This document shows positions 20,669 through 57,770 of a DNA stretch of 64,000 bases, one piece after another. The notes under the pieces were generated by a model. The model was not told the origin of the DNA, searched no databases, and saw only the letters and a list, made by a program, of their open reading frames with translations. Source of the DNA: Raja brachyura (lineage: Eukaryota); NCBI GenBank assembly GCA_963514005.1, contig OY740794.1:26660001-26724000 (forward strand), written 5' to 3'. The translations under genes and the position numbers were made by a program. The stretch's first letter is position 1. Each line of letters opens with the position of its first letter.

Positions 20669-20727
20669 TAATAGCATACCACAACAAAACTTTTCACTGT
20701 ATCTTGGTACATGTGATTAAACTAGAC

Positions 20728-28690: not shown

Positions 28691-28708
28691 CAGCACCCTC
28701 TGCTGGAC
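28691..28708 (-). promoter_or_regulatory. Candidate CTCF-binding site in intron 14
   Basis: Minus strand CCAGCAGAGGGTGC, one mismatch to the CCASYAGRKGGCRS core. Confidence 0.4.
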
Positions 28709-28777
28709 TGAAGATTCACTTGTTGCTAAGAGTGAAATAAAAAATAACAAAGGAAGGAGAAAGGCGAGGTGTTGCAC

Positions 28778-28903
28778 CTTGGAAGAGGTAGTCCTCTGTG
28801 TTCTGATCTGGATTATCCGAGCTCCCCACAATATCAAACGGCGATCGGCCAGCCATCATTTCGAACATCAACACTCCCAGCGCCCACCAATCCACGCTGA
28901 AAC
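28778..28903 (-). CDS. PRKCI: PRKCI exon 14 (126 nt): [41 protein letters not shown]
   Basis: tttccag|GTTTCAGC ... TTCCAAG|gtgcaa. Confidence 0.96.
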
Positions 28904-30611: not shown

Positions 30612-30699
30612 CATAATCCTCGCCACGCAGAATCTCTGGCGCAATGTAATTGGGCGTCCCACAGAATGTGCTGGTTGTATCGCCAGGCCTTAAGCCTTC
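30612..30699 (-). CDS. PRKCI: PRKCI exon 13 (88 nt): [29 protein letters not shown]
   Basis: tatctgcag|GAAGGC ... GATTATG|gtaaac. Activation loop. Confidence 0.97.
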
Positions 30700-32071: not shown

Positions 32072-32344
<273 letters not shown>

Positions 32345-32420
32345 TTAAGACATCTTATGTCAGGAGCTTCAATGCCCCGATATTTTCATTAAATGTGTAC
32401 AAGAAATAAGCTCAGCCTAC

Positions 32421-32507
32421 CTGGCATGCTCTTCTGGAAGCTTCCTTTGCCGCTGCATATGAAACATCAGATCTCCACCGTTCACATATTCTATGACAAA
32501 AAACAAC
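32421..32507 (-). CDS. PRKCI: PRKCI exon 11 (87 nt): [28 protein letters not shown]
   Basis: gcttccag|GTTGTTT ... GCCAG|gtaggc. Confidence 0.96.
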
Positions 32508-33841: not shown

Positions 33842-33939
33842 CTGCTCTCTGTCTGGAAGCAGGAATGTAGTCCCACAAGAAAGGGGTGATTTGATGCCTG
33901 CTCAAACACATGCTTTTCTGTCTGCACCCAATCTATATC
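33842..33939 (-). CDS. PRKCI: PRKCI exon 10 (98 nt): [32 protein letters not shown]
   Basis: ttttaacag|GATATA ... AGCAG|gtgaga. Confidence 0.96.
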
Positions 33940-35469: not shown

Positions 35470-36420
35470 TATTGCCACCATGAAGGGATTGACGGCTTTG
35501 TGGCCAAGTTTGCAGATGATATGAAAATAGGTGGAGAGGCAGATAGTGGAGGAAAAGCAGGGATTCTGCAGAAGGGCTTGGATAGGTTGGGAGTGGGCAA
35601 AGTGGCAGGTGGAATATAGTGTAACGAAGTGCGGTCGTGCAGTTTGGTAGTATGAATAAAGGAGTAGACTATTTTTCAAATGGGGAGAGAATCCAGAAAT
35701 CGGAGGTGCAAAGGGACTTGGGAGTGCAGGTGCAGGATTCCCAAAAAGTTAATCTGCATGCCGAATCAGTAGCAATGAAAGCAAACGCAATGCTCGCATT
35801 TATTTTGCGAGGGTTTGTATATAAAACAGGGATGTAATGCTGAGGCTCCATAAGGCGCTGGTCAGGCCGCATTTGGAATATTGCGAGCAGTTTTGGGCAC
35901 CTCATCTGAAGAAGGATGTGCTAGCTCTGGAGAGGGTCCAGAGGAGGTTTATAAGAATGATCCCAGGAATGAGTAGATTAACATATGATGAGTGTTTGAC
36001 GGCACTGAGCCTGTACTCGATGGAGTTAAGAAGAATGAGGGGACCCTCATTGAATCATACAGAATAGTGAAATACTTGGATAGAGTGGATATGGAGAGGA
36101 TGTTTGCACTAGTTGAGAGTCTAGGACTAGAGGTCATCGCCTCAGAATTAAAGAACGTTTTTTTTAGGAAGATGGAGGAATTTATTTAGTCAGAGGGTGG
36201 TGAATCTGTGGAATTCTTTGCCACACAAGGCTGTGGAGGCCAAGTCAATGAATACATTTAAGGCAGAGATAGATAAATTCTTGATTAGTACGGTGTCAGA
36301 GGTTATGGGGAGAAGGCAAGAGAATGGGGTTAGGAGGGAGAGATAGATCAGCCATGATTGAATGACGGAGTAGACTTGATGGGCCGAATGGCCCAATTCT
36401 GGTCCTATTACTTATGACCA
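35470..36420 (+). mobile_element. Decayed CR1 LINE 3' portion
   Basis: KFADD-like motif, ANAMLAFI, ALVRPHLEYC..FWAPHL, and CR1 3' tail gggccgaatggcc..cttatg. Confidence 0.88.
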
Positions 36421-36678
36421 TGTCATTGGTAATTTTGTTCCTTCACATTCTTGCAAGCTTGAACCAAAGTCATGCACAAAACTTACTTTCTTTGCATCAG
36501 TGACATTGGCACTGAAGTGACATTCACTTCTTTAAGAAGTTAACTTATTAACTTCTTAAAGAAGTTACAAAAGCAGAATATTTAACAGCCTTTCCAATAA
36601 TCAGGTTATGAAATGTTATTAATTCGCAATCCTGTGATTTTTAATCTCGTAATCGCACTGGAGTTATGAATTTCTTAC

Positions 36679-36855
36679 CTCATCATCATTAACCAATTCC
36701 TTTTTCACAACCTTCATGGCATAAATGCGCTCCGTCTTTTTCAGTCGGACAAGGAGAACCTTGGCGTAACTGCCTCTTCCAATCACACGAATTAGATCAA
36801 AATCGGGAACACCTAAACTGGAGGGAGCTTTCCCACTTTCCCTGCTGCTCATGGC
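36679..36855 (-). CDS. PRKCI: PRKCI exon 9 (177 nt): AMSSRESGK...IGRGSYAKV...[15 protein letters not shown]
   Basis: ctcctgatag|GCCATG ... GATGAG|gtaaga. Confidence 0.96.
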
Positions 36856-38852
36856 CTATCAGGAGATGAAGAAACAGCAGATCTAACATTAGCTTGCTCT
36901 TAAAAGCCACAAAGGCACGGAGTTGAGCAAGGCTCCGAACACAAGAGGCAAAAAGCCAATTAAGTGGTATCTTACAGAAAAGCGCATCTAAATTTGCACC
37001 ATGTATTTCAAGCAGTGACAGCCTTGGCTGATACAACTCTCAGCAAGTCTATCTTCTACCCAACCAATAAATCTCTATCAGACTATTCCTCAACTACTCA
37101 AAATTAAATTAAATCAAATCTAGCCTGATCCTGCACAGCGGCCGTGGTGAATCCACATTTGACAAGAGTATCTGGGAAGTCTGAATTCCAGTTGTTAATG
37201 ATGCTGCATTGCAGTGTTGAGCAGTCTGGATAAATACCTGTGCTGTAAATATTATGATCCAAACTATAACTCATGTTTAACAATCATTTTGCAGAAGTAA
37301 TTCTAACCAGTTTTATTTAAAATACTCATTGATCTTCTAATTATATGCCGCTTCTTTAACAATCTTGTTAAACTAATTTTTTGAAACAGAATAATTTTCA
37401 TATGAAAACTTTACAAAATTACTGCTTCTAACTGAGAATATTTTTTCCTGTCAAAATGAAAGTCCTTGACTATGCCCTGGAACTGAGGCCATAAAGAACT
37501 TGATAATGCTCAAATGATATACCTCGGTACTTACACAGCCAATATAAATGAAAGTTGTTAATTGCATAGATGTCTTTCACCATCAGGAGATTTATCACTA
37601 AAGATTTATACTGATTATTTTCTGATTTATTTCTGCATTAATAGCAGATATTAATGTAGTGTCTGAGATACCAACATGGCAAGCTGGCTCAATTTGATGG
37701 ATTTCCACATTTAGGGTAGATTCAGTTTACAGTTCTGTCTCCACAAATAACGAGCTCACCTCACAGAACTAGACTGCAGAGGAAGGATCACTGAACAAAT
37801 TGCCCATAAAAAGGAAAAGATATGTTCCTTTTCTCTGCTGCTTTCCATGTAAAGCTCTCTTCCTCCATTAAGTAAGAATGTCAAAAGATGAGGGAGATTC
37901 TGATTTCTGTCCACCAATGGTTCATCCTATGCTTCAAGTCCATTCCCTCTGCCCCAACTTATTCCTACTTCCTTCGTTTCCACGTTTGTTAAAGCTACAG
38001 GAATCAATTGAACACAACTGTAAATATACTCGGTGACTGAGCATACATAGCTCTTTAACAGAGAATTTCAAAAAATATACAACCCAAAGAAAAACTTCTG
38101 CTAAGCTTAGGATTTGGGGTGGCTCAGAGACGCAACAGTAGAGCTGCTGACTCACTGCACCAGGGGCCCAGGTTCGATCCTGATAATGGATGCTGTCTGT
38201 GCCACAGACAGACAGGTCTGTAGGTTAATTGGCTTTGGTAAAAACGGCCCCCTATTGTGTACGAGTGATGGTGCATATTGGTGATCGATAGTTGGTGTGG
38301 ACTCAGTGGGCCGAAGGGCCTATTTCCATGTTGTATCTCTAAAAAATGACTAATCCTTTATCCTTTGAATATGCTTCTACAGGCATCTTGGAAGTTGCTA
38401 TTTAGTTTTGTTAAGAGATGCAGCATGGAAACAGGCCCTTCGTTCCACAAAGTCCATGACGACCATCAATGAAACAAGTTATTTTACACACAAGTTTATC
38501 TGCTTTCGAATGTTCTACCAGGATTAGTGATGGATGCAGATTTGATGATTTTTAAAAAGGAACTGGACAAATACGTGGAAATGGAAGAGTGGAACTAGCT
38601 AGAGTGCTCTTTGTGAAAGCAGGTACAGACATGATGAGCTTCTCTCTGGTCACTGCTTTTCTAATTCTACTAAAATCCCTCAAGTCTGAACACCACATTC
38701 AAATCCCACCCTAAATTAGATCTCCAAATCTGATATTTATTCCCCAAGAATGAAAATGGAAATGATTACTCTCAATAACATACCGTCTTTCAACATGATA
38801 TAGGATTGTAAAACAAGAGATGCCAACAAGCACAGATGCATTGGTTCTTTAC

Positions 38853-38911
38853 CTCTTTCTCCTCGCCTACATGCTCCAGGTTTTCTTGGCTGGAAGATTT
38901 GTACGGAATAA
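38853..38911 (-). CDS. PRKCI: PRKCI exon 8 (59 nt): VIPYKSSSQENLEHVGEEKE
   Basis: tatgtttag|TTATTCCG ... AAAGAG|gtaaag. Similar to human [20 protein letters not shown]. Confidence 0.93.
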
Positions 38912-39019
38912 CTAAACATAGCATAAAATGAGAATAATATTAGCAAGGACTTAAAAGGGCTAAGGTTAAATTATATTAAACTTGCGAATTTCAACAAATG
39001 GCAAAATAACCATACAGGT

Positions 39020-39460
39020 TGATCACAGTTGTTGTACCAAGAGCAACCATCACAAGTACTGTCCTCCCCACCAAAGGGATCTGTCAGAGGTTCTCTTTCA
39101 AAAAGGCAGCCACTATCAAAGACCCACACCACTTTGTCCACACTCTAATTTCACTCCTGCCATCGGTAAAGTGGTGCAGCAGCCCGAAAACCGTGACCAC
39201 CAGGTTCAAGAGCAACTTCTTCTCAGCAACCATCAGGCTCTTGAACACGCAATCACCTCAGCAATTATGATCTTCGATGAACTGTGTCTTTAGTCTTCAG
39301 TTTTTGCACTGTTATGGTTGCTTAGCATCATGGTTACTAATTCATTGTATTTTTGATCATATATTATCTGTATGTTGTTTAGTTTACAGGCCTGTTAAGC
39401 TGTAAAAGTTTCATTGTTCTGTTGTCGGTATATGTGGCAATTAAACACTCTTGACCACTC
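39020..39460 (+). mobile_element. Rex1/Babar-like LINE 3' fragment
   Basis: KKAATIKDPHH..LLPS..TTRFKSNFF; tail taaacactcttgacc. Confidence 0.75.
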
Positions 39461-41551
39461 TGGAAAGCACGCTACTGAAAACACATTCAATTACTGTCCC
39501 TGCAACAGCTTACACATGGCCCTCCAGGTTGCTAACAAAACTGATGTCCAGTACCAGGGCTTGTTATTTAGGATGGATAGAAGCAGAATCCTCTTCACCC
39601 AAACATCAGTGAATTCTCTACCCGTGATGTTGTGGAGATTTAATCACTTAAGCTTGATGTTGATTGACTTTTAGATATATGGGGAACAAGGGGAAATGGT
39701 TCAAAGCGGTAACTAGCGATGATTGAGAACCGTGATCTTATCAAAGGACAGCGCAGGCACAATGGATGTGAGTACCTGTTTCTATCCCTGTTCCTTACAT
39801 TCTTGAGCTCTCTTCATTTGTGGTCTTTCATTGTCCTTGAATGAAGTCTCTTCCAGAGTATTCTGGATAATCTAAATTGTACCTATAAAAGTTTTCAAAA
39901 TTTACAAACCTCACTTCTCACTCTGCTAGATTTACCATTCCCATCGTTTCACATGGACAATGGAAAAGATCAAGTTAATCCCACCATTAACATGACCCAT
40001 ATCTGTCAAGGTTGAGCATAAATGCACCAAGCTAATTATCCTTTATTAAATGTATTATTAGGCTCACTCCTGGAAATACAAATCACAGCATGCAAGCAAG
40101 TTCAAAGGCCTTGCCTCTCAAGCCAACTAGTTTCTTAACTATTCAGTTGGTGCAATAGGAATAATACCAGCAAATGGACCAGTCATGCGATTAAATCAGA
40201 AATATTAACGGACATATTAGAACTTTTTTGGGGGTGGAGGGGAATACAAATTCACAGAAAATTCTCAACTCGCACCTGTGATCATCCAAAAGCAATTTCT
40301 TTGCACGCTGCCCAATTTAAAATATTGCATGACATTTTGGTAATATCACACCCAACAAAATCATCTTCCCACTCAGTTTCATGAGCTCTCATATTTTAGA
40401 TTAATTTTAAAACCAATTTCTAATGATGAAAATTATGCCACAAAAAAATGGTGCAATTAAAGACTGAAAAATATGTCAAGAATGCTCAGCAAATTAGGTT
40501 GCATCTGAAGAGAGTTAAGGGTTAGCAGCTCTTCAACAAAATGGAACGATGAAAAGAGAGAAGAGTCAAGAGTGTCTTATTGTTCATTAAGGAGAAAGGG
40601 AAGGTATAGAGAAAACAAGAGGGCATGCCAGTGACAAGGTGGAGACTGAAGTTGCCCAGGCAACAATTATTTTTAGGGCCAAAGTTTAAAAGAAAAAAAT
40701 TACATCGGATCCATTAGACACAAAGCACAGTTGTGACTGGAAATACTAAACAGGAGAGAATGCTAGAAATACACAGAAGATCAGTACAAGGTGGATGATT
40801 TTACAAAAGAGCTGATGAGTTGTGACAACACCAGAAAGGCGGGTTACCTGAAATGGTTCAACTCAACATTGAGTCAGGGCCGCAATGTGGTCAGTTCAGT
40901 TGAAAGAGTAAACATGGGAGAGGCAGAGAGAAAATTATAAGAGGAAAGTGGTGGTGCAATTTTATTATGATGGTGGAATTTACAAAGACGGTGGCTTGTG
41001 AGATAGAAAGCAAGGATAAAGGAGGTCAGTGCATAAGTGTCGTAAATTGGGAATTGACCCAATATTGAGTCAGCCGCTCCTTGGTTCCCTCTTCCATTTC
41101 CACAACCATTCCTTTTCCCATGACACAGTGAAGAGAGAGATACAACTCTTCCGCTATCTCCCTCGTCATTATCTAGGGACCAAAACACTTCCTTCTGGGC
41201 AGCAATTCACTTTGGTGCTCACAATGTTCATAAGGTCATAAGTGATGGGAGCAGAATTAGGCCGTTCGGCCCATCAAGTCTATTTGATTCATTCTCCTTC
41301 TTGTAAACCTCCTCTGGACCCTCACCTGGGCCAGCACATCCTTCCTTAGATATTGTGCCCAAAATTGCTCACAATACACCAAATGCGGCCTGACCAGCGC
41401 CTTATCGAGCCTCAGCAATGTTGTCTATTTACACTAGAGAAATTAAACACAGATTGGCTCACTGTTTTGAAGAACACCTCTGTTCAGTCAGCAAGTCACC
41501 TGTCACTCTAATTCTCCATTCCACTCTTTGACCTCCTGCACTGTTCCAATA

Positions 41552-41705
41552 ACATAGAAACATAGAAATTAGGTGCAGGAGTAGGCCATTCGGCCCTTCG
41601 AGCCTGCACCGCCATTCAATATGATCATGGCTGATCATCCAACTCAGTATCCCGTACCTGCCTTCTCTCCATACCCTCTGATCCCCTTAGCCACAAGGGC
41701 CACAC
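41552..41705 (-). mobile_element. Short CR1 3' terminus, same family as the 17211 element
   Basis: Near-identical to 17215-17365. Confidence 0.85.
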
Positions 41706-42101
41706 TCAAGGAACAGCACTTCATCTTCCATCTCTGCACAACGCTGTCCTCTGCACTCATCACTGAATTCAACAATTTTAGATACCCAGCGATTCCTGTC
41801 CGGGTCAGAACTGGCCTGTTCTAACACAAGGCCATACATTTCTAGCTTTAGAACATAAAACGTAGAACAATACAGCACAAGAACAGACTCTTCGGCCCAC
41901 AATGTCTGTGTTGGGCATGATTCCAAGATCAACTCTTATCTGCCTGCACATTATCCATATCCCATCATGTGCCCATCCAAAAATCTGTAAAATGCCTATA
42001 TCATATCTGTCTCAACCACCACCCTGGCAGTTTGTTCCAGGCACTCCATAAAGATTGGGAGACGGCAGATGCTGGAATCATGGGCAAAACACAAAGTTTT
42101 G

Positions 42102-43796
42102 TCAGCGAAGCATCACCCCCTGACGAGCTCAATGCGTTTTACACATCCTGTGATAGGGAGAATACTGATGTGCCTTCACGAGCCCCTATTCGCCATGATG
42201 GTATTTCGGTCACAGTCGCAGAGGCCGACGTCAGAAGTTCCTTCAGAGGGGTGAACCCTCGGAAAGCGCATGGACCTGATAGTAAACCCTGGCGTGTTTT
42301 AAAAATCTGTGCGGATCAACTGGCTGGAGTTTTTACGGACATTTTCAACCTCTCACTTCTGAGGTCTGAGGCTCCTACCTGCTTTAAAAGGGCATCAATA
42401 ATACTGGTGCCCAAGAAGAGCAAGGTGACGTGCCTCAATGACTATCAACCAGTGGCACTAACGTCTGTGGTGATGAAGTGCTTTGAGAGGCTGATCATGG
42501 CGCAAATCAACTCGTACCTCGACAAAAAACTGGACCCACTGCAGTTCGCTTACCGCCACAATAGATCAACTGTGGATGTGATCTCACTGGCTCTCCACTC
42601 CGCTCTGGACCACTTGGACAACAAAAACTCATATGTCAGGCTGTTATTCATTGACTACAGCTCGGCATTTAATACCATCATCCCCTTCATGCTCTCAGAT
42701 CTGGGTTTCAGCGCATCCCTCTGCAATTGGATCCTCGACTTCCTCATTCACAGATCACAGTCTGTCCATATTGGTGGAAATGTGTCATCCTTGCCAACAA
42801 TCAGCACGGGAGCACCTCAAGGCTGCATGCTCAGCCACCTGCTGTACTCACTCTATACTTATGACTGCGTAGCCGGACATAGTGCGAACTCCATCATCAA
42901 GTTCGCCGACGACCCCACTGTTGTGGAACGTATCACTGATGGGGACGAGTCAGAGTATAGAAGTGAGATCGACCAATTGACTAAATGGTGCCAGCACAAT
43001 AACCTGACTCTCAACACCAGCAAAACCAAGGAACTCATTGTGGACTTCGGAAGGGATAGGATAGGGACCCACAATCCCATTTATATCAACGGGTCAATGG
43101 TGGAAAGGGTCAAGAACTTCAAATTCCTGGGCGTGCATATTTCCCAAGATCTCTCCTAGTCCCAGAGCACTGATGCAATCATAAAGAAAGCACATCAGCA
43201 CCTCTACTTCCTGAGAAGATTACGGAGAGTCGGTATGTCAAGGAGGACTCTCTCGAACTTCTACAGGTGCACAGTAGAGAGCATGCTGACTGGTTGCATC
43301 GTGGCTTGGTACGGTAACCTGAGTGAGCGTCCAGGAGTGGAAAAGGCTTCAAAAAGTTGTAACCACAGCCCAGTCCATCACCGTCTCTGACCACCCTATC
43401 ATCGAGGGGATCTATCGCAGTCGCTGCCTCAAAAAAGCTGCCAGCATCATCAAGGACCCACACCATCCTGGCCATACACTCATCTCTCTGCTGCCATCAG
43501 GTAGAAGGTACAGGAGCCTGAAGACTGCAACATCCAGGTTCAGGACAGCTTCTTCCCCACAGCCATCAGACTATTAAACACAACTTCAAACATACTCTGA
43601 ACTATAACAGCCTATTGCACTTTATTTGTTTATTTGTGTGTGCGTGTGCGTGTGCGTGTGTATATATTCTATGGTATATGGACACACTGATCTGATCTGT
43701 ATTTATGCTTACAATATTCTGTTGTGCTGCAGCAAGCAAGAATTTCACTGTCCTATCTGGGACACATGACAATAAACTCTCTTGACTTGACTCTTG
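42102..43796 (+). mobile_element. 5'-truncated Rex1/Babar-clade LINE with RT domain
   Basis: KAHGPD, LNDYQPVALTSVVMKCFERL, DYSSAFNTI, GAPQGC, KFADD, KFLGVHI. Premature TAG at 43157; (cttga)n tail; 8-bp TSD aagttttg (42094-42101, 43797-43804). Confidence 0.92.
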
Positions 43797-44915
43797 AAGT
43801 TTTGAAGAAGGGCTCTGAACCTAAACATCACCTGTCCATTCCCTCCCCAGATGGTGCCTCCAGCACTTTGAGGTTTGCACCTTTAACATTAACTCAGTTC
43901 TCCTCGCTCCACAGAGGCTGCGAGCTCCAACATACTCCTGGGTTTATTTTTTCTTTCTAACTGCTTCCACTGAATGTACTTTACCGAGACAAAGTTGGTC
44001 TCCAAAAACTCATGGCCATGGTCTTGCGTTCTCTTCAACCCCTCAGCAACTTAGATGAAGTCCAATGTTCACAGTGGGGTAGAGGTGAATCGGACAGTAC
44101 CCCAGCATATCATAGAATTGTTCAGATCGCTGATATCACAGGGGAAGAAGCATTCCCTCTTATCCATGCAATTATCTATAAACCTCTTCAATGTCCCTTC
44201 AAAAGTTTACACTTTAAAATACTTGAGAAATCCTTGGAGGGTTTAAAATATGCTTTGCAAAAACTTGTGTTTTTTATTTAATGAATGCTGCTTGATGCCT
44301 CAGCGAATGTTGTGTTCTGTATGGGAGTGGAGCGAGTCAGAAGGGAGATGCAGCCAGGCTTTCTGCTTCCTTCTGCCAACAGCGCAGGTGGCAAAGTGAG
44401 AAAGTCAGGCAAGAAGAGAAATCGCACTTGTGGCACCCCCTGCACCGTGCAGACTTCTGGCACTCGCTGCCCCTGATCGCAGCGATCAATTAGAAGATAG
44501 CTGCCACCTGCGCTAATATGTGAGCCTTCAACATAAAAAAAGTAGAGGAGCAAGTTGGTGAAAAGCTGTTCAAGTTAGATTCATTCTACCCATCTTTTTA
44601 ATTAATTAAAAGCAGCAGATGATTTAATTAATTGAATTCCCTAATGCTTTAACTGTTGTATTTGAGTTTAACTTGATTGTTTAGTATATCTGATCTGTTT
44701 GGATACATGCAATATTAAAGCAATATCCGATCTATATAATTCTTTAGGTTGTAATGTAGATTATGCCTATATTATAATTTTAGGGCAACACATGGAATTA
44801 GCATTTCCTTGAATCTATCGTCATCTACTTTTTCCAATAGGTCTGAAGGATCCTGGCAAATCTTCTGCACTTGGTTTTGCCCACTGAACTCAAAAGGGCT
44901 CAGAAACTTATGTTG

Positions 44916-45942
44916 TGGCAATGTTACAAAATTTTGAGATTTAAAAAATCAAGTCTGCAATTTATCCCATCAGATAAAGCATAAAAAGATGTTTAATTTG
45001 ACACCTAATTCACTTTCATGTCTTCAGTATTAAAAAAGTTATGGCCATTTTCATATTCGGAAATTAGTATCTTGTTCCCTATTGCCTTAACTCAAAAGCT
45101 GTGATCTAGGACAGTCAAAAGCCTATAACTTTCTTAAAAATTAAGAGAACTCAATGAAATTTTCAGTTATTATGGATTGAAGCATTGTGAAACAAATATG
45201 AAACAATCTTACTTGGATGATCTGAAATTAAAGCATATAATTAGTTTGTTACCTAATTGTAGCTAATTACAAAATTCAATTACTAGATCTAAACATCTAT
45301 CCATTTCTTACGAAAAGATAAACATTTTTAAATTGCCTAAGTGTCCAAATAACATTCACACAAGAAATCACAATATAACATGATTTTAAAATCTCATTTT
45401 CATGAATTGATAGGCCAAATGGAAGGAATTTAGTGTTTAATTCCCGTAAATTAATGGCCATTTAAATCAACTAGCGAGTGGGTTTTAGTGGAATGCGGTG
45501 GATTGGAACGTTGCGGTTTGCGGTGAATTTAACCCACAGTCGGCAGGAAAAACACTGCCGGTTCGTATATTTTTTTTGTCCCCACTTCGCAACATGAAAA
45601 TGTGATTAAATGCTTCCTAAGAATCACGTTTTTATGTAAAAATAAACTGTGTTGCTTCTTTTCCCCCCTACGTAAAAACCTTCCTGTTGTCGGCACTCAC
45701 GGCTTTAGAAGATGATATTTAAATTACTCTAGCTAATAAATTATCTAGTGTAGTTTAAAAATACCGTCATAAAACAAATGTCGGAGCGATTTCTCTTTAG
45801 CGACGAAATCCCCCGAGATGATTGACTTGAACTGTCTGTTAAAAAACGGCATTTTAAACCCGCCCCCCTCTGAAAGGCGCCAGAGTCGCGCACACGGGGA
45901 GTGGCAGAACCGCAGCGCCGCTCAAGGTAAGTTTTAAACCTA
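44916..45942. mobile_element. Unclassified ~1-kb non-autonomous DNA transposon-like element
   Basis: Degenerate terminal similarity (ggcaatgttacaaaa / ttttaaaccta), flanking direct repeat tatgttg, AT-rich body with a CpG-rich right end. Confidence 0.55.
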
Positions 45943-45992
45943 TATGTTGGATGGCTTAAAATATTCAGTTAAAAATTATAAATCCTCCTTAC

Positions 45993-46041
45993 CTGGTGCA
46001 ATGTTTTCTGCATTCTCTGCACTTGGAATCATCATATGATC
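45993..46041 (-). CDS. PRKCI: PRKCI exon 7 (49 nt), divergent hinge: DHMMIPSAENAENIAP
   Basis: ctgttttag|GATCAT ... GCACCAG|gtaagg. Phase 0-1 correctly bridges exon 6 to exon 8. Confidence 0.85.
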
Positions 46042-46141
46042 CTAAAACAGAGACATTAAGATAATCGTCATGCATCATATAAATTCAAATAGCTGGCAGT
46101 AAAGCTTATCCTCGTTGGCGATCTGAAAGATGTATGCTTAC

Positions 46142-46183
46142 CTGATCACCGCTTCCCCAGGGATAATGGTGATGTGAGGTGAG
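46142..46183 (-). CDS. PRKCI: Putative additional (cassette) exon '6b', 42 nt, LTSHHHYPWGSGDQ
   Basis: tcttttttgttttgcag|CTCACC ... GATCAG|gtaagc. Near-consensus splice sites, phase 0-0, no stop codon. I recall no counterpart in human PRKCI. Confidence 0.65.
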
Positions 46184-47476
46184 CTGCAAAACAAAAAAGA
46201 GTTGATGCACATTGCATTCACATTACCTTTTTAAACTTAATTTTTGAGATGATGCCATTATTGTCAGTAAATCATGATTTTGAATGTTAAAAATATTATC
46301 AAATTAATAATGCTTCACCATACATACTACAGCTATTTTAAAAAGATTACTTGAATGTGATATATGTTGTACGATATTTACAACATATTCTGGAACTGAA
46401 AGCCACAAGGGTGGAAGAAATTTCACATCAGCATCACGATTTTAATTGTGTGAAAGTGACAGCTCCAAAGGCTGCTCGTGTTAAAGATTTCAGTGCAAAT
46501 GTTATGCTTAGTAATCCTGGCAAAAGTTTGGAAAATTCAGTACCAATTGGATGTAATCTACTAATTTATGAATACGTGTCAGGAAAGCTGAAGCTAAAGT
46601 TATGCCCCAATATCGTCAATACCCTTCATAACGTTATAATATAAATTACACCCACATTATAATTTTAAGAAACCACAAGCAATTGGCATTCCTGGAAATT
46701 AAAGCATCATTACATCACCCAATAGGCCTAAATAATTCCGGCAAGATTTCTGCACTTGCTTTTTTTCCATTATTTGTCTTCCCTTCTTGGAAGTAATGAC
46801 ATCTGTGAGGTAGTATGGCACAAGACAGCAAAATCTTGCAGAGATGTACTCTTTGCATGCAAGCTGGGAGTTATGCATAATCACTGTACATCTGTACAGT
46901 TGCCTGTAAAATAGGGGTTGTTCCTCAACATACAAATCAAGATCCTCAATTACTACTTTGGAAACCGAGATATTGCAGTAAAACAAGCCATGCGGAAACG
47001 GGGGCTAATATATCAGGAGACAAATCTAAATCCCACAGTGACCGCCAGGAAAATTAAATCCAGTTAACTATAGAAATCTAGAACAATTGCCACACAACAG
47101 AAATAGCAACCAAAAAATGAAAACTTGTCACAAAGCCCATCTGACTGAAAGGTTCTTGATTAGGAAGGGTGTCAAAGATTATAGGGAAAAGGCAGGAGAA
47201 TGGGGCTGAGAGGGAAAAATAGATCAGCCATGATTGGAGTAGTCGACTCTATAGGCCGATTGGCCAGATTCTGCTCCTGCATCTTATGGTCGTATAAAGA
47301 ACAACACTACAGCCAATGAAGGAATTAATACATCGCCTAAAGAAGACTGCCCAATTTCTTTCAATTAAAATTCTAAGAGTGAGCGACTATTTTAATTTGA
47401 ACCACTTCACCCTCCATAAACAAAGAGGACTCGAGTTGGAAATTCAAAAGATATTTAAAAGAATAAAAAGACTTAC

Positions 47477-47608
47477 TGCATGACGTCCGCATTCAATTGT
47501 GACCAGTTTGTGACATTTCTTATGGACCAGAAGCTTACAGTTGATGCATTTATAGCCCTGGCGACCAAGGCCCCAGATCCGATCAGTACAAAACGCACAA
47601 TGTGCTCG
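47477..47608 (-). CDS. PRKCI: PRKCI exon 6 (132 nt): C1 domain [44 protein letters not shown]
   Basis: ctcctttag|CGAGCACAT ... CATGCA|gtaagt. Confidence 0.95.
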
Positions 47609-49088
47609 CTAAAGGAGAGAATGCAAATCAACATTTAGTTAAAGATTGGGCTTAGCACTGAAATGCCATTTTGGTTGTAGTAATCACAATTTTAAAAACA
47701 TTTCAGCACACCGCCAAACTCAGGAACAGCTTCCTCCCCCTCTGTCTTATCAGGCCTCTAGTATTGTCCGATTCATGTTGTGTATGGAAGTGGAGGGCTA
47801 TAATGCTGAGAACTATATTCTACACTCTGTCTCGTCCCCATCACATCTGTTGTAATTGAGTTTGACCTGATTGTACTTATGTATTGTATTATCTGATCTG
47901 TTCGGATAGCACGAAAAGCAAAGATTTTGGCTGTATCTCTGTTCACATAACAATAATAAATGTAAACCTAATTTTGAATCTGCTTGAAGATAAAATGACT
48001 GTTTGGGAGATGAAATAAGTGAATTTTGTTTACAAAACATTAAATTTTCCAGCACAACTCACCTTCTCCTAACCTAGTTCCACTTCCTTGTTTATAGTGG
48101 GTGTGCTATTTTAGGGCGACATGGTGGCGTAGCCGTAATGGGCGGCACAGTGACACAGCAGTAGAGTTGCAGCATTACAGCACCAGAGTCCCGGGTTCAA
48201 TCCTGATTACGGTGCTACCTGTATGGAGTTTGTAGGTTCTCCCTGTGACCGCGTGGGTGTTCCTCCCACATGCCAAAGACATTCCAGTTTGTAGGTTAAT
48301 TGGCTTCTGTAAATTGCCCCTCATGTGTAAGAATAGGATATGAATGATTATTGGCTGGCGCAAGCTCAGTGAGCCGAAAGGCCTGTTTCCACGCCACATC
48401 TCTAAAATTAAAACTGCCTTCATATTTTTCAATCTGCGTTATTCAATGAAATGCTGGTCCTGTCCACAGATTCTGCTTGACCCATTGAGTGTTTTCTTAA
48501 TTTCTTTAATTCAGATTTCTAACAACTGTATTTTTGATTTTCATCTTGAATTTAATGCTTTGCTTTGATTCTTTGCACTGCAGTGGCCATATGTAAAGTA
48601 ATCAAACACGCATTAACATTTATCCCCAAGTGCACGGTTCAAATCTATAAAATATTGTCATAACTGTTGAAGTACAATCCTGTAACAAAGCAGGATCTGG
48701 CCAGAGTTAGAATCAACTAACAAATGGCAGTAAATCATTGTGCTTTGGCAAAGGGCAGGCTAAATTACAGATCAGCGGGGACTTTTTGCGTGTCGAGTAA
48801 CAGTTTCTCAAATAATCTACTTAAACGGCCCCTTCCATTAGATCTGGTAATCTTTGCTTTAATGTACGTTCTGTTTTCATTCGGATTTCAAGAGGGTGAT
48901 TGGCCTCGACATTAACTGCTTGTAAATCTGCCTCAGTTAAACCTTTAAGAATTCCAGAGCAGTTTAAATCCAGGTTATACCTTTAATCATGAAGATGAAA
49001 TGGGAATCTATGCAGGGGAAAAAACTGTTACATTCCCTGTCACTGACCTTGTTGAAAACATTTAAAAATAGATAACAGTAGTTCTCAC

Positions 49089-49174
49089 TCTGTTGAATCT
49101 TTTGGCTTGGAAAGTATGTCCATTTACACAATACAGTTTTCTCCAGCGCCGAGCCCCTCGCCTGTATATAGATT
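49089..49174 (-). CDS. PRKCI: PRKCI exon 5 (86 nt): pseudosubstrate, [28 protein letters not shown]
   Basis: gttttcag|AATCTATA ... AACAGA|gtgaga. Confidence 0.96.
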
Positions 49175-50516
49175 CTGAAAACAATGACACAAAATTAAAA
49201 CAAACTTTTCAGCTCTAGAGCAAATTAAGTTTTTAGGAAAGTGAAGTTATTATTTTAAAATGTCAACAAATGCTCAGGTGAGGCTAGACTTGTCTGCTTT
49301 CAGCGTCATTGAAAGTATTTTTTCCCCTCAAACATACAGTAGAATCTGTGGGAAACTTAATAGTACCTCAACTTTACAGAAGGGAAAAATAATATGGTAT
49401 AGAAAAGATAAACTCTGCAGGACATTGTAACAAGTAGAGCTTCAAAATGGCTCCTTACACAGTAGTTTAAACAACAGCCAACAATATGGTCAGGATAAAT
49501 ACACAAAAGGCTGGAGAAACTCAGCGGGTCAGGCAGCATCTGTCAGGAATGTGAATAGGTGACGTTTTGGGTCAGGGCCCTTCAGACCTCTCTCTCTGGA
49601 CCTTTTCATTTCTGTACCCTCTCGGGACTTTATTTCTAACTGCTGACGAGATATCAAATAGTTTGAAGAATATGGTCAGCATAGTTTTGCAAATCATTTA
49701 AGATGTTGTGTTACAATAAATAATATTCATGCCAGATGGATTGAATAATTTTGGCAATTATTCAAAGCCTTCATGGCCACAAAATAAAAATGTAATCAAC
49801 TGTGCTCGGTCCCCCGCACTAAAGTCTAGTCTATCCCACAAACCACCGAACATTAAGAATAGCTTACAGCAGGTTCTCAAGGTATAATTTAATTAAAAAA
49901 TGTAACATAACATTGTAAATACATTGAGAAAGCCACCATTCATCTATATTCTACATTAATTCATTATTTCAAATTGGAAAATTGTAAGCGTAATTTAAAC
50001 ATTTGAACGGTTAAAATTAAATGTCAGTACTGATGTGTGAAAAAGTCCTTTCACTTGTATTGTTGGTGAGATGTGTGCATTATAAAACACCTAAAACTGA
50101 CATTCTCCAAATCACGACCGATCACCAATTTCTTTTGTTAAGATTCACAAATTGAAAGATTGCAAATTTATTATTAATTCTGCCAAATTGGAGTGCAAGG
50201 CCATGAGCTTAGATCTGAGCTTCAGACCGTCGATCTGACTGGACTCTGATAGGACAAGATTGGCTTCTTTGCAATAATTTAATTCAATAATGTGTCCACA
50301 AAGGAACAAAACTGCAGATACTAGAAATTAACAGAAAATGCTGGAAATATTCAGGTCAGCTACATGTGTGGGAAGAGTAATACAGCCAACTGAAATGTAA
50401 ACTGTGTTTCTCTACCCAAAGATGTAGCCTGACCTGCTGAGTATGCCCAGCATTTTCTCTTTTTAGTTCAGCAATGAAATTGAAAATTGATTCAACAAGG
50501 AAAATGAAACACTTAC

Positions 50517-50567
50517 TATCTTCCCCAGGGCAAGGCATGCCTGGCCGTTCTGGGATACAGGGGAACA
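50517..50567 (-). CDS. PRKCI: PRKCI exon 4 (51 nt): VFPCIPERPGMPCPGED
   Basis: ttccgcag|TGTTCCCC ... GAAGATA|gtaagt. Confidence 0.96.
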
Positions 50568-52469
50568 CTGCGGAAGGGAAAATAAGGTTAGGATTAAGTA
50601 GACATTTCTTATTTGACTTTCAACAATACAATCTAGTATACCCTCTACACTCAGTGGGCAATGGGACAAATACATTATGTAATAGATGACATCTTTGTCA
50701 TCTCGCCCGCCAGGAGCTAAACCTTCTACGCCTTCAACTCGTTAACAAAATTCACTCGATCTTTCTCACTGATCTTGGAGAAACCTACAACTAAAGTTTG
50801 ACACAATTTAAGTGCAAAACAGGAACAGCAGAAAACATGAATAGACAACAAAATAATGCAATCAATTCCCGAGATAGATACAAAGTGCTGGGGTTAGTCA
50901 GCAAGTCAGCAGCTTCTCTTGAGAAAAAGAATGTCTGACGTGTCGGGCATGAAAACTTCTTCATATTAAACGTAGTAAAGGGAGGAGGGAAGAGAGAAAA
51001 TTGAGGTTTGAAAAGGCCCCACCCCACCCCCGCCTTTCAGTCTGAAGAAGGGTTCCGACCAGAAACATCACCATCGCGTTTCTCCAGAGATGCTGCCTGA
51101 CCCGCTGAGTTACTCCAGCACTTTGTACCTATCTTCGGTATAAACTAGCATATGCAGTTCCTTCTTCGACTAGCAATCAATTCCATCCTCCTTTCTTATC
51201 TCCCTGTACCTGCAACATTCACTTGCTTCCGATTCTTTCCCCATTTACCTCCCTGCATGCAGAAGATGAATGAATGGAAACCTATCTGGTCCTAGGGATT
51301 GCAAAACCTGCCCTCCACAAGCTGTTCCGATATAAAGCCTAATTACAAGCTCAAAATTATCTCCAGCGGGGGACCCAGTAACAAAGACAACAACAAGCAT
51401 CTGCTTACCCATGTCCGAATAATCACAATGGATGGCGCTCATAGTGGAATTGTCATTGGATCATACAGTACAGAAAGACGCCCTATGGCCCAACTTCCCA
51501 TGCTGCCCCATCTATGCTAGCCCCACCTGCCCATGTTTGGCCCATATCCCTATAAACCATTCCATTTCATATATGTCCAAATGTCTTAATTACTTGTTAC
51601 ACTTTTAATTCAAATTACTTGCGGAGCAGGAAAGATTTTTTTGCCTCTAAAAAATAATATTCATTCATCTGAATATTTGATCTCAGTGCCTGTGACTGAT
51701 ATTTTGGACACAATGTAAGAGTACAATAATCAAGCCTATCCTGAACAGCCAGCAAGGTGGGGTGTTGTTTTATACTAAATAATATTACGTCCTAGAAAAT
51801 AGAACATAGAAAAGTACAGCACAGGAGCCGACCATCTACCCCACCTCTAGAAGATAGGTCAAGCCCAAACGTTAAAAAAATGGCAGTAAAATGTCAGTCA
51901 ATAAAAGTGGAACAAGAGTAGGAAACTCGCCCATTAATAACAGAACACCTTGAACAAACAACGTCATAAACACCTGGAAAGAAGCTTTCCTTCTTCAATC
52001 TACTTGAATGGGAGGCAGAGTAATAAAATCAAATTAAATGGTTATTACATTTTCTTCCACTTTGTGCAATGCTGTAATCCTGGATTTTAAAGAGAGAATA
52101 AATTTAGGATTTTTTTGGTTACCGTGGCACCTGACCAGATTATATGTGCGAACAGCTTGAATCATATTTAGTGTACAGGGAGTTAGCAATTAAGAGAAAC
52201 AGAATATGTGTGCCTTAGATAATCAGTGGATTGTGTTTTGCTTGACAAGTATTGCTCCTTCCTGAATAAAACCACAAATACAACTGCACATCCAGTTTCT
52301 CCAATTAAAATAAATTTCAGGGCTCATGCAAGGTTGATCCTTCCCAACAAATATGACCAAAATTCAAAATCTTACAATGACAGACTGACTTTGTACTGCT
52401 AATCACAAAAACAAAATCACACCAGTTAATTCCCAAAAGATTCAAGATTGTAAAAGATTTTTAGCTCAC

Positions 52470-52559
52470 CATGAATGATCAGTTCAGAGTCTTTATTCAG
52501 CTCGTAGAGGCGAAAGGCTTCCTCCAGTTCTAGCTGAGATGAGACAGTGCAAGGATCGC
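52470..52559 (-). CDS. PRKCI: PRKCI exon 3 (90 nt): [29 protein letters not shown]
   Basis: ttgaacag|GCGATCCT ... ATTCATG|gtgagc. Confidence 0.96.
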
Positions 52560-53789
52560 CTGTTCAATAAACAATAGCAACAGTGCAATTTATGCATTTG
52601 AAATATTTTAACACTGTGGCACAGGATACTCAAGGTTAACATTTCTGATGAAGACCTGGAAAAGTCAGCGGCTCAGGCAGCATCTGTGGAGAACATAGAT
52701 AGGCGATGCTTCGGTCAGGACCATTTTGCAGAGCTGATCGTGTACCTGGATACCGCAGTGCAGGGTGGTTATGGCCAGGTTTAGGTCGCAATCATTGACT
52801 GCGCCGATCCTCGCCTCTCCCCTGGCCATCAACTCATCAGGATTCCAGGTCCAGTTCCAGACAGAGAGTCTGAAGAAGAGTCTGGACTGAAGATGTCACG
52901 TTCTCCAGAAATGCTGCCTAAACAGCTGAGTTACTCCAGCACTTTGTGTCCTTTTGTTTATTAATCAGCAACTGTAGTTGTTTGGTTTACTATCTATGAT
53001 AATCCCTTACTTGGTTATCGCGGACAATCAGCAATAACGAACACCACTTCCCTCCCTATAGTCCATTATAACGAGGATTTACTGTATTTGAACATGAGCA
53101 GAATTGCCCAAATGCTCTGCCTAATGTTTCACTCAATCATTAAAACATAGCTATCACGTTGTTTATTAGTTTATCTTTTGTGTTTTCCATCCATCCAATT
53201 ACTAATTAATTCATTTTGCAGCTTAACATTTCTTCAACCATCTACTCGATCATCTCTGCTACAATATTACATCTCACGTGCAACAAACTCCCTGTAGGCA
53301 TGGAGTTAAACCACAAGTCTAATAGGAAGCTCTTCCATTTTTGTCATCCGACTCCAGGATCAAGATCATTCCAATCTAGTTACCGAGTTGCAATTTGCAC
53401 ATAATATTTACAGATGTGCATATTTAGAGGCCAATCTCCCAGGTCATTGTTAAGGTTCTCAAATTATGGGAGCACAAGCCTTAAATTCAAGATCAGCAAG
53501 ACTAAGATCCTCCATAAAATTGCCCACAACCGCATAATTTCACCCTACCAATCCAAACAATAAAGCTTGGTGTTGGAATACTGCTATATGTACAACAGGA
53601 AGTACAAAGAGAAAAGATACAGAGTGCAGCATTACAGTTATGGAGAAAAGTCAAAATCCATGCCCCATATCTCAGGGCCTTGTCTTAGTGAAGGAAAACA
53701 CCGATGATGAAATTTAGTCAGTGGCAGGGGAACAGTGGTGGGATCAAGGTTGCCATCCTGGACAATTCTGGGATACGGCAGTATCGGAT

Positions 53790-54267
53790 CTCACTGCTTT
53801 CTTGATCATCGCATCAGTGTGAAAGGACCAGGTTAGCTTGCTGGTGATATGGATGCTGCGGAACTTGAAGCTAGTGATCTCTGCAGCAGCTCTGCTGATG
53901 AGAACAGACCTGCGTTCACCCCCTTGCTTCCGCAAATCAACAATCAACTCTTCTGTCTTTCTGTCATTGGGGCTCGGTTGTTGTACTAATCACACAAGTT
54001 TCCCCGAATTCTTTCCTGTACTTCGTCTCGTTGTTGTTGATTAAGACGACAACAGTGGTATCGTCCAGGAATGTAGAGATAGAGTTGGCAATATTATTGG
54101 CCATAAAGTCATAGGTGCGCAGGGAGTAGAGCAAGGGACTGAGCACATAATCCTGAGGGGCACCGGTGTTGACATGCAGGGTGAAGAAAGTGTTATGCCC
54201 AACTCTAACCAACTGAGGTTTGCCAGTCAGGAAGACAAGAAGCCAGTTGCAGATTGAGGTCCCAAAG
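53790..54267 (-). mobile_element. Rex1/Babar-like RT fragment
   Basis: CNWLLVFLT..NTGAPQDYVLSPLLYSL..FLDDTTVV; MIVDLRK..SFKF. Confidence 0.85.
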
Positions 54268-55784
54268 CAGGGCTCGAAATTAGCGGTTCCCGGGTACCAA
54301 TGGCAACTTAGTCCTGCCTGGCAACCTACAGCCATGCCATTTTGCCCGGCTTGGCATGCAACCGGGACACCCGCCCGCCATCCGTGTCTCGGTGCTAGCT
54401 CTCGGGTCTCCGCCGGCCGCCGAGCACATCATCGGCCGCAGTTGTGCGCATGTGCGGCCCTGCACATGCGCACTGCCACGGCAACTGGTCAGCGTCAGCC
54501 ACTTTCTCCCTCCCTTTGCATTGTGGGAGTTCTCGCCGCCATTGCTGTCCGGTCGCTGCCTCACCGCGACCGCTGAAAAACAACGCAAAATCGCTCCCTG
54601 GAGCTGGAGTAACTCCCTAGTGTATCTGTTGCTTCTTGCTTTCCAGGTCCTCCAAAAATATTCAAAATTGAATTTTAACTGGTGGACCCACCACCACCAA
54701 ACTCCAAACTCTGGAAGAATAACAGTCTATTCCATTTTATCTGTTTATTTATTGTGTGTATATATATGGTCTATAGTATACAGACACTGAACTTTTATCT
54801 CCTGTTCTGTATTAAGTTGACATATTCTGTTGTGCTGTAGCAACCAAGAATTTCATTGCCCTATCTGGGGCACATGACAATAAAACTCTCTTGACTTGGA
54901 CTTAAGCAAAAAATGGTTCCTGGGAAAAAAAAAGCTGCCTTAAATTTAGTTGCGTCTGGTTGGTACCTATGGTAGGGTGAAGACTATTCCATGCTTTAAT
55001 TGTGCGGAGGAACTCCATGGAGCAGCCAGTATCTCTGGATAGAAAAAATTGGGCGACGCTTGGGGTAGAAACCCTTCTTTACATTTCCTCTGGTTTTAGT
55101 ATTTTTAGTTTAATTTAAAGATACAGCGTTGAAACAGGCCCTTCGGCCCACCGATTACACGCCGACCACCCGTACTCTAGTTCTATCCCACACATCAGCG
55201 ACGCAAGTCAAGAATGTTTTATTCTCTCACGTCCCAGTTAGAACAATGAAATCCTTACTTGCAGCAGCACAACAGAATATGTAAACATAGTACTCTTGTA
55301 AACAATGTTATAAACGTGAAAACAAAACTCCATACAAGACAGCAACCATATTCAGGATCAATTCCGGGACTCTGGCAATATTAGGCAGCAACTTTATGGC
55401 CAACGTACTGCCCTAATAGCCTTGAACTGAATTAAAACATACAGTAGCTGTAAAGGGGGACATAGCGTCACTTAGAGATTTAAGAATGAAAATGGATAGT
55501 TTCTTTTTTTGTAGTAACCAAAGTTATCAACGTATATTTTTTTGTGTGTTGGAAAATAAAATATAGTGGCACAGCTGGTGGACTTGCTGCCTCACACGCC
55601 AGAGATCTGTGTTCGATCCTGTTCTCGGGCACTGTGTGTTGAATTTGCACATTCTCCCTGCAAGCGTGTGGGTTTCCTCCCACATCCCAAAGACGCATTG
55701 GCTTTGTAGGTTAACATGTCTCTGTAAAATTGCCCCTAATGTGCAGGGAGTGGGTGAGAAAAGTGGGATAGCAGAACGTGTGAA

Positions 55785-56240
55785 TGGGTAGACAAAAATG
55801 CTGGAGAATCTCAGCAGGTGAGGCAGCATCTATGGAGCGAAGGAAATAGGCAACGTTTCGGGTCGAGACCCTTCCTCAGACTGATGTAGGGAGGGGTGGG
55901 GGGCGGGAAAAAGAAAGGAAGAGGCGGAGACAGTAGGCTGTGGGAGAGCTGGGAATGGGAGGGGAAGGAGGGAGAAAACAAGGACTACCTGAAATTGGAG
56001 AAGCCAATGTTCATACCGCTGGGGTGCAAACTACCCAAGCAAAATATGAGGTGTTGTTCCTCCAATTTGCGGTGGGCCTCACTCTGGCCATGGAGGAGGC
56101 CAGGACAGAAAGGTCGGATTTGGAATGGGAGGGAGAGTTGAAGTGCTGAGCCACCGGGAGATCAGGTTGGTTATTGCGAACTGAGTGGAGGTGTTGTGCG
56201 AAGCGATCGCCAAGCCTGCGCTTGGTCTCACCGAGGTTGA
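55785..56240 (-). mobile_element. Penelope-like retroelement 3' end: GIY-YIG endonuclease fragment plus terminal repeat (older fragment at ~34470-34940)
   Basis: GETKRRLGDRFAQHLHSVRNNQPDLPVAQHFNSPSHS matches the Penelope GIY-YIG C-terminal pattern. Confidence 0.88.
55850..55882 (-). ncRNA. Minimal hammerhead-ribozyme-like motif in the Penelope terminal repeat
   Basis: GU-CUGAGGA-A-GGGUC-UC-GACCC-GAA-ACGU-U: CUGANGA box, stem II, GAAA box, palindromic ACGU and UH. Confidence 0.6.
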
Positions 56241-57648
56241 TCATACGCTGAATAACCGTATTTTTGTTTGGAAGTGGAAAGAGATAATAGAAATTGCATT
56301 CATTGCAACGTGTAAAAAGAGATGAGATACTGTGTTGTAATTTTGCTGCATGTCATTGTGGTATATATCATGTCTTGATTGGTGAATATGTTTAGGTGGT
56401 GACTTTATTTGAAGCAGAAACAATATGTGAATGCTTCATTGACCATAATTCCGACTGGTAACTGCACACTTCGTCGGAGCACATTATCGCTCGCGTCATG
56501 CAAGCCGTCTTAAATGACCACCTAAACTGTCATTTGGCAACCTAAAAAGCTGCCGAGGGTGCCCGACTGGCAACAGGGAAAAAAAGTTAAGCGAGAGCCC
56601 TGCACAGCCGAAGGTCCAGAAATGTAGGGATATGCTTATTCAGTATTATGATACAAAGTTTGTTGGAAAGCAGTATCTGCTACCTCTTGTGTCTTCAGTA
56701 TTGTGATGTTGAAGGCTGAGCTATGGTCAGTGAATAACATTCTAACATAAGTGTATTCATTGTCAAGGTGATCTGGAGCTCAATGTAATACAGCAAGGCT
56801 GCATCCTCCGTCAACCTGTTTTTTTTTTGTGAGTCACCAAGTATTGATTTAGAGTAAATGCACGTTTTTACTTCATCTTTCTGTTTTGCATGAAACATCA
56901 GATATGAGACTGACAAGAGAAAGATTCATTTGATTTTAAGAGAATGTGGTGGAAAATGCTTCCTCACATTAACCAACCTACCCAAAATCCTGACAATGCT
57001 GAGAATGGTTTCAAAAATTATTCCGAAGCCTTTGAATTTCCATTCATGCAAATTGCCCAGTAATTTTATGAATTCAATAGAATCCTTTTAAGCATTATAA
57101 TATTTCACAGCAATTAGCAATGGATAACAATTTCCCGATCATTGTTATCCTTTATAGATTTCTTTGGATTATAATACCACAACAAAGATTAAACAATTTC
57201 ATGCTAAACTGCTGCACCATTTAAATGGAAACATTAGATTCCATAGCTCTGCTTGGAAAAGTGCATAATTAATGCTTCACACCCTAATCTGTCTTCATTC
57301 CAACCCTTCTTAAATTTTGCTCTTACTCTCATTTCAATCACTCTGCCCTTCATCTTCCTTGAAAATGAGAAAAGAACTGAGATAATGAACGTGTGGTGGA
57401 AAAACAAATAAAATGCTCGTGATTTTCACCTAGCCATTGCAACAAGTTTGGTTTTAGTCACTTATTACTTTGAAAGCAGTTTTGCCTAAGTAAAGCACTC
57501 AATAAAGGTAGTAAATTTACACAATGCATTTCTATTGAAAATAATTAAACATTATTCTGCAAAAAGTCACAACAATTCTTACTTTGACCTACCACGATCC
57601 TTCTGTTCTCAGAAATACGTAACAGAAATTTAGCACAAAATTCACTAC

Positions 57649-57770
57649 CTTCTTCATCGATCCACTTCATTGTAAAGAACTGTTCATTATCAAAGCAGCA
57701 CATGTCACGAACTTCAGTGCAAAGATTTTCATAACTGATGGCAGGATCAAAGTGGGTGATCATGATATCC
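57649..57770 (-). CDS. PRKCI: PRKCI exon 2 (122 nt), PB1 domain: [40 protein letters not shown]
   Basis: ctctacttag|GGATATC ... GAAGAAG|gtagtg. Confidence 0.95.

Follow-up and report, generated by a model that had tools for sequence, protein, structure and literature searches.

Gene and exon structure

The window, which is the whole stretch of 64,000 nucleotides from Raja brachyura analysed here, carries the skate PRKCI gene on its minus strand, and the closest proteins returned came from Leucoraja and Rhinoraja. The gene is present in one copy in the genome. Exon 1 lies about 9 kb past the window end (L016:9247-9167), and with exon 6b included the coding exons total 19; human PRKCI has 18 exons. 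The assignment to PRKCI follows from the order PB1, pseudosubstrate, C1, kinase and C-tail found by Pfam in the Leucoraja orthologue. The window exons are 70-100% identical to this orthologue in tblastn pieces, some of which are depressed by intron overhang. Exon 6 is 72% identical to a separate zeta-like locus on C33, and the PRKCI locus is nearer to iota than to zeta. The features around exon 6b are collected in Table 1.

Table 1. Features of the PRKCI locus in the window (positions on the forward strand of the window)
Feature	Position	Strand	Basis or remark
PRKCI coding exons 2-18 and 6b	13906..57770	-	exon mapping within the window
PRKCI exon 6, 132 nt, C-terminal part of C1 zinc finger, ends in phase 0	47477..47608	-	Pfam C1_1 E=3e-14; covered by RNA contigs
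Intron from exon 6 to 6b, 1293 nt, GT-AG	46184..47476	-	joint 46183/47477 in 4/4 runs
Acceptor of 6b, T-rich pyrimidine tract and CAG, AG-free zone of 41 nt	46184..46203	-	sequence
Exon 6b, 42 nt, phase 0-0, encodes LTSHHHYPWGSGDQ	46142..46183	-	sequence, RNA contigs, conservation
Intron from 6b to exon 7, 100 nt, GT-AG, donor CAG/GTAAGC	46042..46141	-	joint in 5/5 RNA-type runs
TGCATG hexamer (RBFOX consensus, putative site)	46069..46074	-	+68 from 6b donor; -33..-28 from exon 7 acceptor
Two candidate branch-point adenosines for exon 7	46056..46068	-	-27 at 46068, directly after TGCATG; -15 at 46056; consensus only
PRKCI exon 7, 49 nt, phase 0-1, orthologue of bony-vertebrate exon 7	45993..46041	-	exon mapping; shorter than Heptranchias exon 7
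PRKCI exon 8, 59 nt, hinge	38853..38911	-	loose end of run X3 contig runs into exon 8

An earlier note, made from the letters alone, had described a 42-nt in-frame exon with its splice sites, a 100-nt downstream intron and a TGCATG hexamer, placed right after the C1 zinc finger. The sequence, the exon, both sites, the intron and the hexamer position are all as described, and the placement in PRKCI after the zinc finger is supported. The claim of frame preservation also holds, because exon 6 ends in phase 0 and exon 7 begins in phase 0, which makes exon 6b symmetric. The donor of 6b has 8 of 9 U1 matches and is joint best among 15 exons of the gene. A blind splice-site scan of the whole minus strand placed 6b among six acceptor-donor intervals above a strict cut-off.

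Apart from the 100-nt intron, only the one separating exons 11 and 12 is very short, at about 147 nt (about 32420-32274). There are 138 N at 21343-21480, in the intron between exons 16 and 17.

Splicing of exon 6b

Exon 6b is a real exon that is spliced between exons 6 and 7. Five public runs (X1-X5), guessed to be of RNA type and coming from two studies with two organism labels, were available as contig sets rather than raw reads; such sets drop rare variants and show the presence of inclusion, not the absence of skipping. In X1, X2, X4 and X5 both junctions are found in a single contig of 1.8-2.2 kb, at depths of 106, 45, 81 and 84 respectively. These contigs jump 1293 nt (47477/46183) and 100 nt (46142/46041), both with GT-AG on the gene strand. 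X3, compared over a shorter stretch, shows the joint between 6b and exon 7 at a depth of 31, and its loose ends run on into exons 6 and 8. X1 and X4 were marked 'probably DNA' by the tool, yet their contigs are spliced.

Three further runs (X6, X8 and X11), of unstated kind and DNA-type in appearance, cover 45940-46460 in one unspliced piece and differ from the window at 0, 1 and 3 of 521 nt; X6 or X8 may come from the very source of the window DNA. The DNA-type runs are thus unspliced in 3/3 cases, and the joined form is not genomic DNA. The one change within 6b (46175, run X11) is synonymous.

The AG and GT sites are used in transcripts in 5/5 RNA-type runs and the reading frame is conserved, as in a bona fide internal coding exon. 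The earlier note had proposed looking for the junctions in RNA: the joint between exons 6 and 6b was present in 4/4 runs and that between 6b and 7 in 5/5, and no direct joint between 6 and 7 was seen in 4/4. A spurious exon would have neither junctions nor conservation, and here the junctions occur in 5/5 runs and the exon is conserved in 13 species. An artefact or pseudo-exon is ruled out by the junctions in RNA-type contigs together with the conservation, and a retrocopy as the origin of the spliced contigs is ruled out by the single locus and the unspliced DNA-type runs.

Conservation in sharks and rays

The elasmobranch set comprised 15 of 38 cluster members (those listed) and Rhincodon. 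Among the matches listed, 15 of 16 elasmobranch PRKCI proteins contain the insert, and they represent 13 species, five of them rays or skates and eight of them galeomorph sharks. The insert is 14 or 15 residues long across sharks and rays. Seven residues (Y, P, W, G, S, D and Q) show no variation across 13/13 rows, made up of 12 proteins and the window. Conservation is uneven: the identity between rays and sharks is 96% in the last eight residues, 57% in the rest of 6b and 76% in exon 7. Overall, elasmobranch PRKCI proteins are 95-99% identical.

Exon 6b is already in public RefSeq gene models. The position and the core of the insert are shared between the window and the RefSeq proteins of Leucoraja erinacea (XP_055501755.1), Scyliorhinus canicula (XP_038673386.1) and Mustelus asterias (XP_078060826.1). 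The exon 7 peptide of Leucoraja is identical to that of the window, whereas 6b has 14 codons in the window and 15 in Leucoraja and the other four rays seen. Among the papers listed on splicing of PRKCI or PKC iota, on elasmobranch PRKCI or aPKC and on exon gain in cartilaginous fish, none was seen to describe exon 6b, though isoform tables that accompany genome papers might bear on this. The inserts of Mobula and Hypanus (P0123, P0129) read PPHY, a pattern resembling the PPxY ligands of WW domains and missing from the other species compared.

Isoform X2 of Heptranchias perlo is the sole elasmobranch protein without the insert among the matches listed, with exon 6 joined straight to exon 7. This model means that 6b is skipped or absent in at least one shark. 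Neither a chimaera nor Heptranchias X1 was returned among the best 8 of 16 candidates in a search with the hinge region, and a search for short fragments with the hinge gave two candidates, none at E<=10.

The divergence of sharks and rays is dated to 256 Ma (HPD 212-312) in a preprint (bioRxiv 10.64898/2026.02.13.705779). Exon 6b is likely to be over 250 My old.

The hinge and the insert

In the Leucoraja orthologue the insert occupies residues 188-202, between C1 (134-185) and the kinase domain (259-511) as assigned by Pfam. A model of this protein built from 100 sequences has a mean pLDDT of 82, and residues 187-249 are below 50 and have no secondary structure; the insert is present in only 9 of the 100 rows aligned for folding, and such sparse coverage alone depresses pLDDT. 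A model built earlier from 30 near-identical sequences (mean pLDDT 38.5) was set aside. The hinge between C1 and the kinase is thus predicted to be disordered. Measured by script from the last C1 cysteine to the kinase start, the hinge runs to 64-66 residues in elasmobranchs that have 6b, against 56 in most amniote rows, so that the insert lengthens the tether by a net 8-10 residues compared with most amniotes. Intron read-through models indicate that exon 6 of bony vertebrates has 2-3 additional codons.

Mammalian PRKCI has the same PB1, C1, kinase and C-tail domains, and the human chain 9ejk_B aligns end to end, but the mammalian protein lacks the 6b peptide. In published work, mammalian PRKCI is described as a single full-length transcript (PMC7104321), human residues 22-194 are treated as a regulatory module (PMC10333572), and the PB1-C1 head is variable in a cryo-EM complex (PMC12216845). 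Another cryo-EM model covers only human residues 248-585 and leaves the hinge region unmodelled (PMC11996676). According to a further study, the kinase domain is contacted by both the pseudosubstrate and C1 when the protein is autoinhibited, and the insert sits in the tether that lets this module fold back on the kinase (PMC10754278).

The 14 added residues would give a longer flexible tether between C1 and the kinase domain, and this may affect autoinhibition or partner binding, as the earlier note had suggested. The two halves of the insert may differ in their role. The variable His-rich half is likely to be a spacer only, and the invariant half, YPWGSxDQ, may be a short motif for binding or docking, whose aromatic core would bind a partner or dock on folded domains. 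This putative function is put forward tentatively, from the pattern of conservation. An atlas query with the hinge gave no usable match, and no partner or known motif was identified for the insert.

The main alternative to the motif reading is constraint by splicing signals, since the conserved half of 6b adjoins the donor and such signals could account for its conservation. In its broader form this alternative regards 6b as a tolerated spacer in a flexible linker, with the conserved half kept by splicing signals such as enhancers and the donor context or by slow elasmobranch evolution and the peptide having no binding role. It fits a hinge that is predicted to be disordered and that varies in length across aPKCs, the overall identity of the elasmobranch proteins, the several invariant residues that exon 7 also has, and the tolerance of 6b for one-codon indels. 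It does not readily explain why the last eight residues, Trp and Tyr included, are more conserved than either exon 7 or the first half of 6b, and the sole 6b change seen in a close relative (46175) leaves the peptide unaltered. A mere spacer is therefore considered rather unlikely, yet it deserves more weight than the other alternatives discussed below.

Default inclusion or regulated cassette

Eight species have a product that is named without an isoform number and includes 6b, and RefSeq omits 'isoform' when a gene has a single product. In Mustelus, Pristis and Chiloscyllium plagiosum, the three species where both X1 and X2 were seen, both isoforms include 6b. The unnumbered products and the X1 and X2 pairs point to default inclusion. 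As regards a direct joint between exons 6 and 7, none is listed in the four runs that have both exons on their stretch and could show one, in contigs from which rare forms are dropped, and the only form without the exon is Heptranchias X2. Inclusion of 6b is quite probably near-constitutive, and its strong splice sites would be what brings this about.

The earlier note had instead proposed a tissue-regulated isoform driven by RBFOX, in which binding to UGCAUG 68 nt downstream promotes inclusion in neurons and muscle. The two motifs that it named are both present, but neither rises above chance. Over the 34.9 kb of the gene body TGCATG is found 18 times in sense and 16 times in antisense orientation, and it occurs in 4.7% of 100-nt stretches and in 6.0% of shuffles of the intron between 6b and exon 7, i.e. 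at a chance level of 5-6%. In this proximal downstream intron it is a single copy, neither clustered nor beyond chance. Four of the 15 exons tested (6b and exons 3, 9 and 12) have the hexamer within 250 nt downstream. The count of TGC upstream of the 6b acceptor is ordinary, with two in -60..-4, and six of the other 14 exons have two or three. The hexamer is unchanged in 3/3 DNA runs, a test without power as the runs are near-identical (0, 1 and 3 of 521 nt).

The 100-nt intron also puts TGCATG upstream of exon 7, which makes the sign of any effect ambiguous: it lies 28-33 nt before the exon 7 acceptor and beside a candidate branch point. SRRM3/4 neural microexons are at most 27 nt long and have an upstream UGC enhancer. 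Exon 6b resembles them in being short and symmetric with TGC upstream, but it has 42 nt, the TGC count is ordinary for the gene and there is no sign of neural restriction. A reading of TGC as a microexon enhancer is rejected since the motif is not enriched in comparison with other exons and 42 nt exceeds the 27-nt limit.

A cassette controlled by RBFOX is still compatible with several observations. The exon is short and symmetric, Heptranchias X2 lacks it, and five RNA runs taken entirely from nerve or muscle would yield contigs like those observed. According to one study, RBFOX promotes inclusion when bound 10-80 nt downstream of muscle-included cassette exons (PMC5840707), and the hexamer falls within this zone. 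Exon 6b is like RBFOX-activated cassette exons such as Mef2d alpha2 in preserving the frame and having UGCAUG in the 10-80 nt zone (PMC5840707). It differs from them in having no skipping outside Heptranchias, strong splice sites and a single hexamer at chance frequency, a hexamer that exons 3, 9 and 12 also have within 250 nt. The position of the hexamer upstream of exon 7 is one where repression would be expected. The skipped form is found in 0/5 RNA sets and in 0/15 elasmobranch proteins other than Heptranchias among the matches listed. The proposal of the earlier note is not supported, with inclusion as the sole form in 5/5 RNA contig sets and the hexamer at chance, and regulation of this kind is considered improbable. 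Skipping of 6b, where it occurs, would leave an in-frame kinase with a shorter hinge, and the Heptranchias model without the exon exists.

Origin of exon 6b

The comparison set consisted of 237 proteins with an aPKC-type C1 exon, among them some fragments, read-through models and a small number of other PKCs; in 203 of the proteins the kinase start delimits the hinge. The eight-residue core scores 46-52 in the 15 elasmobranch proteins with the insert, and none of the remaining 222 exceeds 22. At the protein level, the 6b peptide was found in 0/221 non-elasmobranch proteins with an aPKC-type C1 exon, among them those of coelacanth, gar, sturgeons, teleosts and tetrapods as well as divergent aPKCs.

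The paralogue PRKCZ is located at C33:3832583-3804482 of the same genome. It shares with PRKCI an exon 6 of 132 nt ending in phase 0, an exon 7 of phase 0-1 and an exon 8 of 59 nt. It differs in an exon 7 of 82 nt and in its 16.5-kb intron 6, where no match resembling 6b was found; an unrelated small exon there is still possible. The exon is thus absent from the paralogue and, at the protein level only, from the outgroups. The suggestion in the earlier note of a lineage-restricted exon agrees well with 15 of 16 elasmobranch proteins against 0 of 221 others. Its second suggestion, an ancestral exon that was later lost, is less parsimonious than gain, with nothing like 6b in skate PRKCZ and the core in no bony-vertebrate aPKC seen. 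Exon 6b has probably been gained within the ancestral intron 6 in the elasmobranch lineage rather than lost elsewhere.

Exon 7 of Heptranchias (19 residues) aligns with the hinge of alligator and turtle (z 3.7 and 3.9), with z>2 in 4 of 16 bony proteins. The alignment of window exon 7 with bony hinges is weak (mean z 0.4, with every z at or below 1.6), and 6b gives no alignment with them (mean z -0.3). Because Heptranchias exon 7 aligns with the amniote hinge while 6b aligns with none, it is likely that exon 7 is ancient and that 6b was added beside it, not that one exon was split into the two. Tandem duplication of exon 7 as the source of 6b is rejected (P=0.43 for the exon only and P=0.32 with flanks).

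Exonisation from a repeat has also been considered, and it concerns the origin only. Exon 6b would then go back to an antisense piece of a repeat that is abundant in the skate and probably represents the tail of a Penelope-like element. The 3' half of 6b with the donor (46169-46131) matches one copy at 32 of 39 positions and 20/20 further copies at 24-30 of 39 (mean 28.5), all without gaps, and a profile of those 20 copies scores the segment above 999 of 1000 shuffles. A first look at the genome gave 5615 candidates for the repeat, and the frame beside it carries a GIY-YIG lead (0.90; family on 21% of members). However, the repeat family was picked after a genome-wide pattern search, and the five other two-mismatch matches do not exceed a rough chance estimate of about nine. 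The score is just 4.0 bits over 30 nt, with a similarity of about 73% over 30-39 nt and no extension into the flanks. Against 154 kb of unselected genome the best repeat match is ordinary (P=0.95), and we estimate that significance is lost when the choice among hundreds to thousands of repeat segments is taken into account. No match was obtained with Rfam on four repeat loci, and Pfam named no family on the frame adjoining the repeat. A repeat origin is accordingly regarded as doubtful.

The most improbable alternative is that a new 100-nt intron divided a single long ancestral exon into 6b and exon 7, or that 6b is an ancestral gnathostome exon lost in bony vertebrates: the two exons together have 91 nt, near the 82 nt of exon 7 in skate PRKCZ, the junction is CAG/G with a short intron, and the chimaera and lamprey proteins do not settle the matter (three chimaera models are visibly wrong in the hinge and the lone lamprey protein is without this region), but in Heptranchias exon 6 is followed at once by an exon 7 of full length, which can be aligned with exon 7 of amniotes, 6b aligns neither with PRKCZ exon 7 (z -0.9) nor with bony hinges, and separate losses in PRKCZ and in bony PRKCI would be needed.

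Several repeats were noted in the window in passing. An abundant repeat is found at 55954-56352 and, as 100-nt tails, in many other places of the window; its copies are about 80-86% alike, and it is likely to be Penelope-like. The tail holds a CTGA...GAAAC spacing, which presumably resembles a hammerhead core. In intron 6 the RNA-type contigs pile up on a short repeat (47146-47236) to a summed depth near or above 100,000, likely an abundant SINE-like repeat with many loci. Intronic reverse-transcriptase frames at 41921-43156 (plus strand) and 18242-19681 (minus strand), with Pfam RVT_1 E-values of 3e-23 and 1e-15, are likely LINE fragments, and further frames of reverse-transcriptase type are found at 1-1304.

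Significance of the exon

Taken together, the most credible account, held with reasonable rather than firm confidence, is a real exon shared by elasmobranchs that was gained in intron 6, is included by default and adds an insert with a short conserved motif to a hinge predicted to be disordered. A more far-reaching version is offered as speculation of low probability: a new linear motif, YPWGSxDQ, would have arisen on the autoinhibitory tether more than 250 My ago from a skippable and possibly transposon-born exon, would still be optional in Hexanchiformes, and would have been fixed in rays and galeomorphs together with the loss of four exon 7 codons, providing a partner or docking contact that is absent from bony vertebrates.

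Since aPKC iota is highly conserved, it is unusual for this core polarity kinase to have acquired an exon and kept it for about 250 My, although flexible linkers commonly gain exons. Should the core serve in binding, exon 6b would be a natural probe of the role of the hinge.

The exon might also be informative for phylogeny. In the preprint, Hexanchiformes are sister to all other sharks and rays (bioRxiv 10.64898/2026.02.13.705779). A four-codon deletion in exon 7 common to rays and galeomorphs and not to Hexanchiformes would fit this position, with Heptranchias as the sole squalomorph seen. Where Hexanchiformes belong is disputed, and both the state of 6b and the exon 7 deletion could serve as rare genomic changes to place them. 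The exon 7 peptide has 19 residues in Heptranchias and about 19 in a chimaera model (proteins P0128 and P0136), but 15 in the rays and galeomorphs seen; in Leucoraja and in the window it has 16, with one extra Met.
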